From assembly GCA_963790805.1 (NCBI GenBank), contig CAWBPL010000002.1, forward strand, positions 770,696 to 823,813: a stretch of 53,118 nucleotides of DNA, read 5' to 3'. Below the pieces are notes generated by a model. That model had not been told where the DNA came from. It made no database searches and worked only from the letters and a program-made list of their open reading frames with translations. This document shows positions 9,963 to 12,020 of this stretch, one piece after another (position 1 is the stretch's first letter; each line of letters begins with the position of its first letter). A program made the position numbers and the translations under genes. The stretch comes from Candidatus Gottesmanbacteria bacterium. GTDB lineage: Bacteria; Patescibacteriota; Microgenomatia; UBA10105; UBA927.

Positions 9963-12020
9963 ATGGCTGCCACATACACCGTCAAACAAGTTGCAGAAAT
10001 ATTAGGCTATTCCACCAATAGCATTTATACGTTTCTTAAGGAAAAACGGATTAAAGGAGTACGCGTGGGGAGAGGGAGATTTCGCATACCCCAGTCAGAG
10101 CTTGATCGGTTACTTTTGACGAAAGAAGGGAAATTAACGGTGCCACGGGAATATGGATTACCCATCCAGCCGGTGCCGGGTTTTACTCAGGCGCTGCCGA
10201 CAGGTGTTATAGAACCTCCGCGCCAAACCATCATATCGCCCAATTATGTGACCAGTTCCCATAATCGGGTTGATGTGCCCAGTCTTTTCGACTGGTTCGT
10301 CGGTATCGGATCCATTGTGCTGGGGCTTGCCATGTTTTTATTTTCGCGGGTGAATGAAGAGTATTCTTTTCAACAGTTTGCCGCGATTTTGCCGGCTATT
10401 CGAATGACTCTCATTGCGGGAGGATTCGGGATACTGTTAACCGACATCGTAAGCCGGAAGTTAAGTATCTGGCATACCGTATTTCACTGGGCTTTAGTGT
10501 TTGCATACGCCTTCTATGTAGTTATTCTGGTTGAGATGGCCAATTGGGAGGGAGTTGTCGTATTCGGGGTTCTTATGGCCACGCTGATTTTGACGTTTTT
10601 TACGGGAATCGGCGGGATTGCCGGATTTGCAATCTATGTTGTCGGCCTTTTGGCGCTTTTGCCTTCTGTTGCGGTATTTGCACCACAGCATTCGACGCTT
10701 CTGCCCTTTATGTCGTATTTACCGCTTCCGACGGCTGCGCTTTCGTATGTTTGGGTGTTTCTCATTCTCGGGGTGGCTACGATGGTCTGGCTGGGGTATA
10801 TGCGGGATCGCCGCGTGTTTTGGATCGGCATGATAGGGGTGAGCATACTTCTTATCGCTGTATCCATGCAGTATGCCATGTCACTCGCGTGGGGCCGGTC
10901 GCTTTTTATTCTTATTACCGCCATGTTGTCGCTTTTTGTACCGGTTTGGCAGTCGTTGACATTTACCCATAAGCACGATCGGGCCTTTATTTTCGGAGCA
11001 TTCGGAACATTACTTGTCCTCTACGTTTTGGTTGTCGGGGTGTTGCGCATTATGCAGACGAACGTTATGCAGTATGCGGGTCAGGAACTGAATAACAAGG
11101 TTGCGTACGGAAAGTCTCTCGTTGAATCGACAATTATGTCCTCAAAAACATCTTTGTCTTCTGCTGCAACAAATCCATTGCTCGTAAGCGCGCTGGACAG
11201 CGGAAAAAAGGATGACCTTCAATCGCTCGCGCGGGCATTGTTTGAAGGCAATACGTTATTCCGCCGCGTATTGATATTAGGCAGTGACGGAGCTCCGCTT
11301 ACGCTCTATCCCTATGCGGACGGGGAACAATCCTCGTACGCGCAAACTGATTATTTTATACAGGCGACAACGACAAAAAATACGGTAACATCAACGGTCT
11401 ATGACGGTGCCACGGATTCAATGCAAAAGTCCGTCGTTATAGCGGTGCCCGTTTTAAACGGTAAAAATGAAGTAATCGGTGTTATCGCAGGATCGCTTGA
11501 TCTTGCAACCTTGGGCAATAAGCTTCAGCAGATTGCCTCGACTTCAACCGGCGAATATTTCGTTGTCGTCGACAAAGCAGGGAAGCGTGTAATATTTCCG
11601 GATTTTCAACAGGTGGGTTCTGTCGTTGATTCCTCTGATACCATACGTTTGGGTCTTGCCGGTAATACCGGATTGACAGAGGGCAGTAATACTGAGGGCA
11701 CTACAACGCTTATTTCCTACGATGCGATCAATACTGATACCGGCTGGGCGATAGCAATCTATGCGCCGGTAACAAAAATACTTCAGAGTACAAACGCCGC
11801 AAATATCATGATTTTCTCCGTACTGGTTTTGAGCATATTTATCGTCTCTGTCTTTTTGTTAAGTCACAGGACGAAGGTACAGGTGGGAGAAGCCGTAGTG
11901 GTTTCGGATGCCACTGATATTCCTCATGAAACGCGTGTGGGAAGAGCGATGCATCAGGCGGCAACCAAGAAACGTTTGAAGGGAGCATCGAAAGCAAAAA
12001 AGCCGGAGGACACTTCATGA
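9963..12020 (+). CDS. Excisionase-type (MerR/HTH_17) HTH + ~9 TM + dCache-like domain + TM; putative membrane-bound one-component regulator
   Basis: [43 protein letters not shown] (HTH_17). Cache-like SVVIAVPV...[10 protein letters not shown]...[16 protein letters not shown]...WAIAIYAP. Confidence 0.8.

Follow-up and report, generated by a model that had tools for sequence, protein, structure and literature searches.

Within a 53,118-nucleotide stretch of the genome of a Candidatus Gottesmanbacteria bacterium, an uncultured and ultra-small member of the candidate phyla radiation (GCA_963790805.1, contig CAWBPL010000002.1, positions 770,696 to 823,813; hereafter the window) lies a gene for a 685-residue membrane protein, which we call the receptor and which joins an excisionase-type helix-turn-helix (HTH) domain to nine transmembrane (TM) helices, a predicted extracytoplasmic dCache_1 domain and a tenth helix. 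Directly downstream is a giant gene for a collagen-like fibre. We report a computational analysis of this locus and its relatives, on the basis of which we think it rather probable that the receptor is a one-component transcription regulator, polytopic and tethered to the membrane, that serves specifically in the (auto)regulation of the receptor-fibre unit and is, as such, probably the fibre's dedicated switch.

Pfam assigns residues 5-51 of the receptor to HTH_17 (40.3 bits against a cut-off of 27) and residues 370-599 to dCache_1 (61.1 bits against a cut-off of 45), and the N-terminus also matches the NCBIfam model TIGR01764, 'excisionase family DNA-binding', at 36.1 bits against a cut-off of 28.8. 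The OmpR-type winged helix Trans_reg_C has no Pfam match in the protein, in which neither Pfam nor NCBIfam finds a kinase, HisKA, HATPase, receiver, methyl-accepting chemotaxis protein (MCP) or cyclase domain; its similarity to KinD and CcaA is confined to the Cache region. The solved sequence nearest to the HTH is the mycobacteriophage protein Gp37 (4J2N, E = 0.004), which we take to be an Xis. No signalling output domain was found after TM10, homologues matching only as far as about residue 636. An earlier annotation of the window, made from its letters alone (the first-pass annotation), had described this same order of domains ending in a short basic tail; the order stands. The tail does exist in this protein, but no more than 11-19% of the family have one, for which reason we place it outside the conserved mechanism.

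Kyte-Doolittle hydropathy analysis gives nine hydrophobic segments at residues 108-362 and one more at 614-634, and the same nine-plus-one cores recur in the averaged profile of 201 full-length homologues. An AlphaFold2 model built on 140 homologues (predicted local distance difference test, pLDDT, 88.4; predicted TM-score, pTM, 0.80) has helices at residues 108-126, 143-162, 169-191, 195-214, 218-239, 257-280, 283-306, 310-331, 337-402 and 612-636; the count of about nine TM segments before the Cache domain, originally made by eye, is upheld by all three approaches. In the model, the TM9 helix (337-402) runs without a break into the stalk of a two-module Cache domain, a small winged helix occupies residues 1-50, residues 54-105 form a disordered linker (pLDDT <50 at 54-77 and 91-100) and the tail contains a helix at residues 655-672 of moderate pLDDT. 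Lysine and arginine together average 6.37 in the loops predicted to lie inside and 1.63 in those predicted outside, a bias obeyed by 200 of the 201 homologues, and dCache_1 fills the whole of the outside region between TM9 and TM10. Because this bias is so nearly universal and the model is a confident one, we assign the HTH and tail to the cytoplasm and the Cache domain to the outside, a prediction that agrees with the topology first proposed and puts the two domains on opposite sides of the membrane.

This arrangement is shared by a family of proteins. A word-indexed search returned 191 relatives, nearly all of which carry both HTH_17 and dCache_1, and when 1.84 billion representative proteins were searched exhaustively with HMMER, 183 clusters emerged at E <1e-30, mostly aligned from residue 1 to about residue 636. 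With HTH_17 and dCache_1 found together in some 183 representative clusters, the fusion is not unique to this assembly and, judging by these relatives, it is real and no artefact. The named homologue records are metagenome-assembled genomes of Candidatus Gottesmanbacteria or other Patescibacteria. The gene is present, nearly always as a single copy, in 39 of the 81 genomes of the window's GTDB family; it is absent from all of the sister-family genomes (6/6) and, of 401 genomes sampled throughout the phylum, only two others have it.

Conservation in the receptor is highest in the HTH, where column entropy is 0.5-1.2 bits against 2-3 bits elsewhere, and this implies that its target is conserved as well. 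The linker that follows has the highest entropy in the protein (>3 bits), an alignment occupancy of 0.34-0.85 and a variable length. It ends at the residues that open TM1, F109, D110, W111 and F112 (FDWF), which are kept in at least 89% of members. Further into the membrane block, G121, G154, G156, W170, W310, P327 and W329 are conserved, the glycines and tryptophans being nearly invariant. Since these conserved residues are largely glycine and tryptophan and D110 is the only conserved charge, the conservation pattern of the block does not look like that of an enzyme or a transporter. Searches with the block from 10 diverse members gave no Pfam family at E values up to 10, and the best 50 Foldseek matches to the full receptor model were all to the Cache domain, with none to the TM block; modelled alone from a single sequence, the block reached a pLDDT of 54, which is unusable for fold comparison.

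The receptor travels with the fibre. In all 22 loci (22/22) for which downstream sequence is available, tblastn places the non-repetitive N-terminal domain of the fibre (12175-13140, without a Pfam match) immediately after the receptor, and G-X-Y runs occur in each downstream frame that has sufficient sequence; the gene-neighbourhood check for collagen genes, which the first-pass annotation had called for, thus came out in its favour. The N-domain is likewise found downstream of a receptor paralogue that lacks the HTH (locus L036), and it is missing from three loci that have lost the receptor. Because the N-domain follows the receptor in every case and is absent with it, receptor and fibre are, on this genomic evidence, an obligate pair. 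Between them lies a hairpin of the type AATCCGC-N4-GCGGATTT or similar, conserved in all loci and not called at 12051-12078 by a terminator scanner, which, as a terminator or attenuator, could determine how strongly the receptor is expressed relative to the fibre. At its C-terminus (17428-20049) the fibre carries an H-type lectin domain and then a bacterial SH3_3 domain, consistent with a tip that binds carbohydrate or cell wall.

The region upstream of the receptor holds a promoter-like site, recognisable between loci as the conserved block 'cttgaca...catagtagatatag', after which the leader is occupied by direct repeats with a 10-bp unit close to ACTTGTAAAA: TTGTAC at 9891, TTGTAA at 9901 and TTGTAC at 9924, followed by ACTAGTAAAA and ACTTGAAAAA. 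It is the phasing of these units rather than the hexamer that stands out. By itself the TTGTAM hexamer is no commoner in the window than chance predicts (58 observed, 57.8 expected), whereas same-strand TTGTAM pairs spaced 10-11 bp apart occur four times against 0.06 expected, with a maximum of one in 200 shuffles. The whole 1.25-Mb genome contains five strict arrays, four of them within about 4 kb of the receptor gene, and when the 1.22-Mb contig is scanned with a position weight matrix (PWM) derived solely from other, related loci, the two strongest clusters are those in the receptor leader (9898-9941) and in the gap from the receptor stop to the fibre start (12114-12132). Related loci show the conserved promoter and then degenerate 10-11-bp units as far as the start codon, with a homologous array in most of them. 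Across 17 loci the phased pairs fall, with one exception, at four syntenic positions: the receptor leader (plus strand); the region after the receptor stop, where the arrays are on the minus strand (L001, L002, L005, L006, L008, L009 and L015); the convergent region between glgA and the gene for a Fic-related protein (L002, L010, L011, L013 and L016); and upstream of glgA or of a gene for a PaaX-like protein. In the window's own clade, TTGTA sites fill about 100 bp before the fibre start codon. The features of the locus are collected in Table 1.

Table 1. Features of the receptor-fibre locus, in coordinates of the window.
Feature	Position	Strand	Description
Receptor gene	9963..12020	+	685 aa: HTH_17, linker, 9 TM, dCache_1, TM10, tail
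HTH_17 / excisionase-type winged helix	9975..10115	+	Residues 5-51; predicted cytoplasmic
Linker	10116..10283	+	Residues 52-107; disordered, variable length; ends in conserved FDWF at TM1 start
Nine-helix membrane block	10284..11048	+	Residues 108-362
dCache_1 domain	11070..11759	+	Residues 370-599; predicted extracytoplasmic
TM10	11796..11870	+	Residues 612-636; K/R-rich stretch after
Basic C-terminal tail	11871..12017	+	Residues 637-685; subclade-specific
Receptor promoter-like site	9853..9881	+	TTGACA-17-CATAGT; conserved across loci
Leader array	9888..9953	+	10-bp-phased direct repeats between -10 box and start codon
Terminator-like hairpin and T-tract	12051..12078	+	After receptor stop; read from sequence and aligned downstream regions
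Second site cluster	12113..12162	both	Hairpin to fibre start codon; ACTTGTAAAA on minus strand at 12113-12124; TTGTAC on plus strand at 12135 and 12157
Giant fibre gene	12175..20052	+	N-terminal TM anchor, 310-aa non-repetitive N-domain, ~1,400 aa of G-X-T collagen-like repeats, H-type lectin, SH3_3
Fic-related protein gene	8733..9686	-	317 aa, divergent from receptor; C-terminal DeoR-type winged HTH, recognition helix SQITASRDL
Two mirrored GATAAG-N5-GATAAG pairs	9729..9827	both	CTTATC at 9729 and 9740; GATAAG at 9811 and 9822
Three TTGTAM units	8661..8686	+	10-bp phase; convergent region of glgA and Fic-related gene 3' ends
Three TTGTA units	6049..6073	+	10-bp phase; upstream of PaaX/Cas2-like gene

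The presence of the arrays follows that of the receptor's HTH. By criteria applied uniformly, arrays within 3 kb accompany 21 of the 24 loci with an HTH-bearing receptor and none of the five without one (Fisher P = 4.7e-4), against a background of about two pairs per 1.2 Mb in the window's genome, a comparison from which the small number of negative loci, only five, and the phylogenetic relatedness of the loci detract. One competing candidate is the divergently encoded Fic-related protein, which adjoins the receptor in 16 of the 16 loci with upstream sequence and beside which lie the GATAAG-N5-GATAAG pairs, each adjoining one divergent -35 box. Three genomes have the gene for this protein without a receptor; none has phased TTGTA arrays, and in two of the three the GATAAG pair beside the gene is kept. 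Conversely, five receptor loci without a Fic-related orthologue, one of which belongs to another GTDB family at 26% identity, all have arrays or phased TTGTA units between promoter and start codon, and no GATAAG pairs were found in their examined flanks. At locus L038 (protein P0158) the HTH alone has been lost: the Fic-related neighbour, GATAAG and promoter are all kept, and the leader has no array sites. The HTH-less paralogue at L036 (P0201), which sits in a different neighbourhood, also has no arrays. We infer that the TTGTA arrays are the operators of the receptor HTH, and the GATAAG pairs most likely belong to the winged HTH of the Fic-related protein. A search for covariation between this winged HTH and variants of GATAAG gave no clean pattern, because its recognition helix, SQITASRDL, is nearly invariant. 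The first-pass annotation had envisaged a single protein leading directly from sensor to DNA and controlling the adjacent collagen-like gene; this fits the constant presence of the fibre gene and the tracking of arrays with the HTH, and is in part supported by them.

A few members of the family depart from the standard gene structure. P0158 and P0201 are truly without the HTH. A third candidate for this class, P0128, was rejected: its HTH lies in frame upstream of the called start (L037, 3809-4000), so that its apparent absence is an artefact of gene calling. This HTH begins at a CTG codon (L-P-K-T-Y-T-V), which suggests either a non-canonical start codon or an error of the gene caller, and suggests that some 'HTH-less' database entries are artefacts of the same kind. 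An apparent stand-alone HTH of 68 residues in genome G408 was also rejected, since it lies at a contig end and is the same record as locus L017. Two overlapping open reading frames (ORFs) encode the receptor at locus L034 (G476:C12, 3030-5008), one of 121 residues for the HTH and linker and one of 537 residues for the membrane and Cache parts, with arrays on both sides; this is either a frameshift or a genuine two-gene version. Within the window's genome the recognition helix of the receptor differs from those of the six other HTH_17 domains. Outside the window, the same genome contains a 3,064-residue open frame on the minus strand (C2:585810-595001) with two HTH_17 domains near its N-terminus.

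The Cache domain resembles sensors of small molecules. Foldseek aligns it to the ligand-binding domains of PctA, KinD and Mlp37 with TM-scores of 0.75-0.80, and the closest solved sensor by profile is Bacillus subtilis KinD (4JGO, crystallised with pyruvate; E = 2.6e-16). An arginine occupies the position of the carboxylate contact of KinD, R131, a column fixed by the difference there between the wild-type and R131A KinD entries, in 148 of the 201 members. The window's subclade (at least 64% identity) has Q-[S/T]-D-Y where the family has x-R-D-Y, a sequence similar to QGDYY in the amine receptor PacA (for background on the motif, see PMC10589655). The window protein retains aromatic residues at 464, 465 and 480, and the equivalent of KinD D173 is ambiguous in it, being either S511 or D513. 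The signal may be a small carboxylate-type ligand in most members of the family and something different in the subclade of the window.

Relative to known systems, the receptor is new in its combination of parts rather than in principle. The census of transmembrane transcription regulators (TTRs) by Demey, Gumerov, Xing, Zhulin and DiRita (2023) counts 50,302 proteins, 27% of them with at least three TM regions and some with as many as 22, and their DNA-binding domains are of more than 100 kinds; according to its supplements, 936 TTRs have dCache_1 and 151 have HTH_17, the former mostly in the order dCache_1 and then an AraC-type HTH (PMC10269533). A census of Cache domains likewise lists 300 dCache_1 proteins with transcription-factor outputs (PMC4822843). 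The premise of the first-pass annotation, that Cache domains normally feed kinases, chemoreceptors or cyclases and that the known membrane-tethered regulators (ToxR/CadC) are bitopic with an OmpR-type winged HTH, is too narrow in the light of both (PMC10269533, PMC4822843). Like the TTRs, the receptor is a single polypeptide with both a DNA-binding domain and TM regions but no phosphotransfer domains, and its sequence places it within the definition of that class. In those parts of the TTR census text that were searched, there is no mention of HTH_17 combined with nine TM helices, dCache_1 and a further TM helix, nor do the searched text and supplements mention 'Patescibacteria' (PMC10269533). 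Our literature search found no paper that mentions HTH_17 with dCache_1 and none that describes this receptor family. In distinction to the entries of the census, the receptor comes with candidate operators and a fixed target gene.

The receptor is like ToxR, CadC and TcpP in having its DNA-binding domain at the N-terminus and in the cytoplasm, a flexible linker next to the membrane and a sensor on the outside, and in both cases regulation is thought, or here proposed, to occur from the membrane. ToxR, CadC and TcpP are single-pass proteins with an OmpR-type winged helix. The receptor, by contrast, has 10 TM helices, an HTH of the excisionase/BldC type and its Cache domain between TM9 and TM10, and it is no member of the ToxR/CadC group because both the type of HTH and the number of TM helices are wrong. 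The membrane regulators that join dCache_1 to an AraC-type HTH_18, such as BH0483 in the TTR census, resemble the receptor in uniting a dCache_1 sensor outside the cell with an HTH in a single chain; there the HTH follows the sensor, whereas in the receptor it is N-terminal, nine helices away from the sensor, with nothing conserved after TM10. The receptor's Cache domain has the fold of KinD (4JGO/4JGP, pyruvate-bound) and of the PctA and PacA dCache domains, yet its output is neither a kinase, as in KinD, nor an MCP domain, as in PctA and PacA.

The closest parallel for the DNA-binding end is BldC of Streptomyces, which, with the excisionases, belongs to the same small MerR/Xis-like class of winged helices as the receptor HTH. 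Monomers of BldC line up head to tail, in variable numbers, on direct repeats with a spacing of one helical turn (PMC5859096). The geometry of the candidate sites at the receptor locus, as read from the DNA, is that of the BldC repeats; the consensus differs, being ACTTGTAAAA at the receptor locus and AATTxxxx(C) for BldC. BldC is also a soluble protein of 68 residues, whereas the HTH of the receptor is fused to a membrane sensor of 630 residues.

Taken with the arrays, this parallel leads us to propose the following mechanism. The cytoplasmic HTH_17 hangs by a disordered linker of some 55 residues from a 10-helix body that displays dCache_1 on the outside, and we infer that several copies bind side by side, one helical turn apart as in BldC, on the rows of ACTTGTAAAA-like sites that lie downstream of the receptor's own promoter, between hairpin and fibre gene, and near glgA. 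Occupancy of these rows would set the transcription of both receptor and fibre, in the simplest version by blocking the leader, which would amount to negative autoregulation. A signal at the Cache domain might move TM9 and TM10 against the eight-helix bundle or change oligomerisation, and such a change could alter the number of HTH heads that are free, or near enough, for cooperative binding.

A number of observations weigh against this reading. The assignment of the arrays to the HTH is correlative; three of the 24 HTH-bearing loci fall below the array threshold, and the PWM used for scoring was trained on the leaders of 15 of the positive loci, although six of the seven positive-class loci that had no part in the training score as well. 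A search of public sequencing runs found none that contain the stretch. The locus also encodes other proteins that bind DNA (the Fic-related winged HTH and the PaaX-like protein), and the genome contains small stand-alone HTH_17 proteins. The window protein has Thr462 in the position equivalent to KinD R131. The route from Cache domain to HTH is not obvious, in that the sensor helices are TM9 and TM10 and the HTH is attached to TM1 through a disordered linker. Finally, the pairing of HTH-less relatives with the fibre indicates that the membrane module has a role independent of the HTH.

It is from this last point that the alternative we take most seriously begins: the 9TM-dCache module may be primarily a partner of the fibre, which docks, assembles, anchors or monitors the N-domain instead of sensing a small molecule, with the HTH a later addition that provides feedback on the operon or tethers the locus to the membrane. 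We regard this as unlikely on present evidence, with a chance that is nevertheless not small. The N-domain follows the receptor in all 22 loci, it follows the HTH-less L036 in an unrelated neighbourhood, so that the HTH is not needed for the pairing, the two genes are absent together from the receptor-less loci, and the TM block belongs to no known family. Yet the Cache fold and its distal pocket are those of an ordinary small-ligand dCache domain, most members keep the arginine aligned with R131, and the TM block shows no conserved constellation of catalytic appearance, D110 being its lone conserved charge. A related and more doubtful idea is that of a membrane-anchored nucleoprotein filament, in which tethered BldC-like heads on inward-facing arrays on both sides of the gene would hold the receptor-fibre locus at the membrane while the Cache/9-TM body would report on the fibre's own state (a docked N-domain, load or host contact), not on a free metabolite. 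Were this so, the fibre of 2,600 residues would be made and inserted where it is anchored, and an episymbiotic bacterium would possess an attachment switch that senses contact.

The remaining alternatives concern the HTH. It may act only once released, regulated proteolysis in the linker freeing a soluble BldC-like HTH for the arrays, and for this speak the long, disordered and variable linker, the split gene of G476, in which the HTH and membrane ORFs are separate and the arrays still there, and a reported activation of CadC that depends on proteolytic cleavage (PMC11484849). The linker, however, has no conserved cleavage motif and the highest entropy in the protein, no dedicated protease is encoded among the neighbouring genes scanned, and the split in G476 may be a sequencing frameshift; we consider such release improbable. 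It is less probable still that the arrays are bound by another protein (a small stand-alone HTH_17, the PaaX-like protein or the Fic-related winged HTH), the receptor HTH having some other target or a non-regulatory part. There are, to be sure, three more DNA-binding proteins encoded at the locus or close to it, and the genome has a further six HTH_17 domains, but no arrays remain where the HTH alone is gone (L038), they persist without the Fic-related gene, it is GATAAG and not TTGTA that tracks that gene, and the recognition helix of the receptor is unlike that of every paralogue in the genome. We attach hardly any weight to the idea that some mobile element uses the HTH as its excisionase (recombination directionality factor) and the repeats as arm-type sites: the match to the excisionase family and the phage Gp37 as nearest solved relative suggest it, but the HTH is fused to a 630-residue membrane sensor in about 183 clusters, and we reject a mobile-element excisionase because synteny with glgA and the glycosyltransferases is kept across species at 30-55% protein identity and no integrase is found among the neighbours scanned. 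A membrane-tethered regulator of the receptor-fibre unit remains the reading we prefer.

The surroundings of the pair are themselves conserved. The 317-residue neighbour is only weakly related to Fic: the Pfam Fic model does not match it, and its C-terminal third alone resembles a solved Fic-family protein (8CIL, E = 0.008). Its orthologues occur in about 36 genomes of the GTDB family. Between the glycosyltransferase genes and glgA, a 202-residue protein (6332-6940, plus strand) matches the Cas2-like central domain of PaaX; this PaaX-like protein is conserved in several related loci (L001, L012, L014 and L015). In the region 4671-8598, genes for GT4 glycosyltransferases and for a GT5 starch/glycogen synthase keep their synteny with the receptor-fibre pair from one species to another, and it is a matter of speculation that these enzymes glycosylate the threonine-rich G-X-T repeats instead of making glycogen.

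Bacteria of the candidate phyla radiation (CPR) have tiny genomes and bear surface structures that are thought to attach them to hosts; to our knowledge, how these structures are controlled is essentially unknown. No principle is overturned by the receptor described here, because polytopic membrane regulators and fusions of Cache and HTH domains have already been catalogued. If the proposed reading is correct, however, we know of no earlier example in which a winged helix of the filament-forming BldC/Xis type serves as the output of a transmembrane receptor. With the sensor helices and the HTH at opposite ends of a 10-helix bundle, the way in which a signal would cross from one to the other becomes a real mechanistic question. 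The locus would offer a compact and testable regulatory unit in which to pursue it, made up of a sensor, a DNA motif and a target fibre with some 1,400 collagen-like residues and a tip of lectin and SH3 domains.

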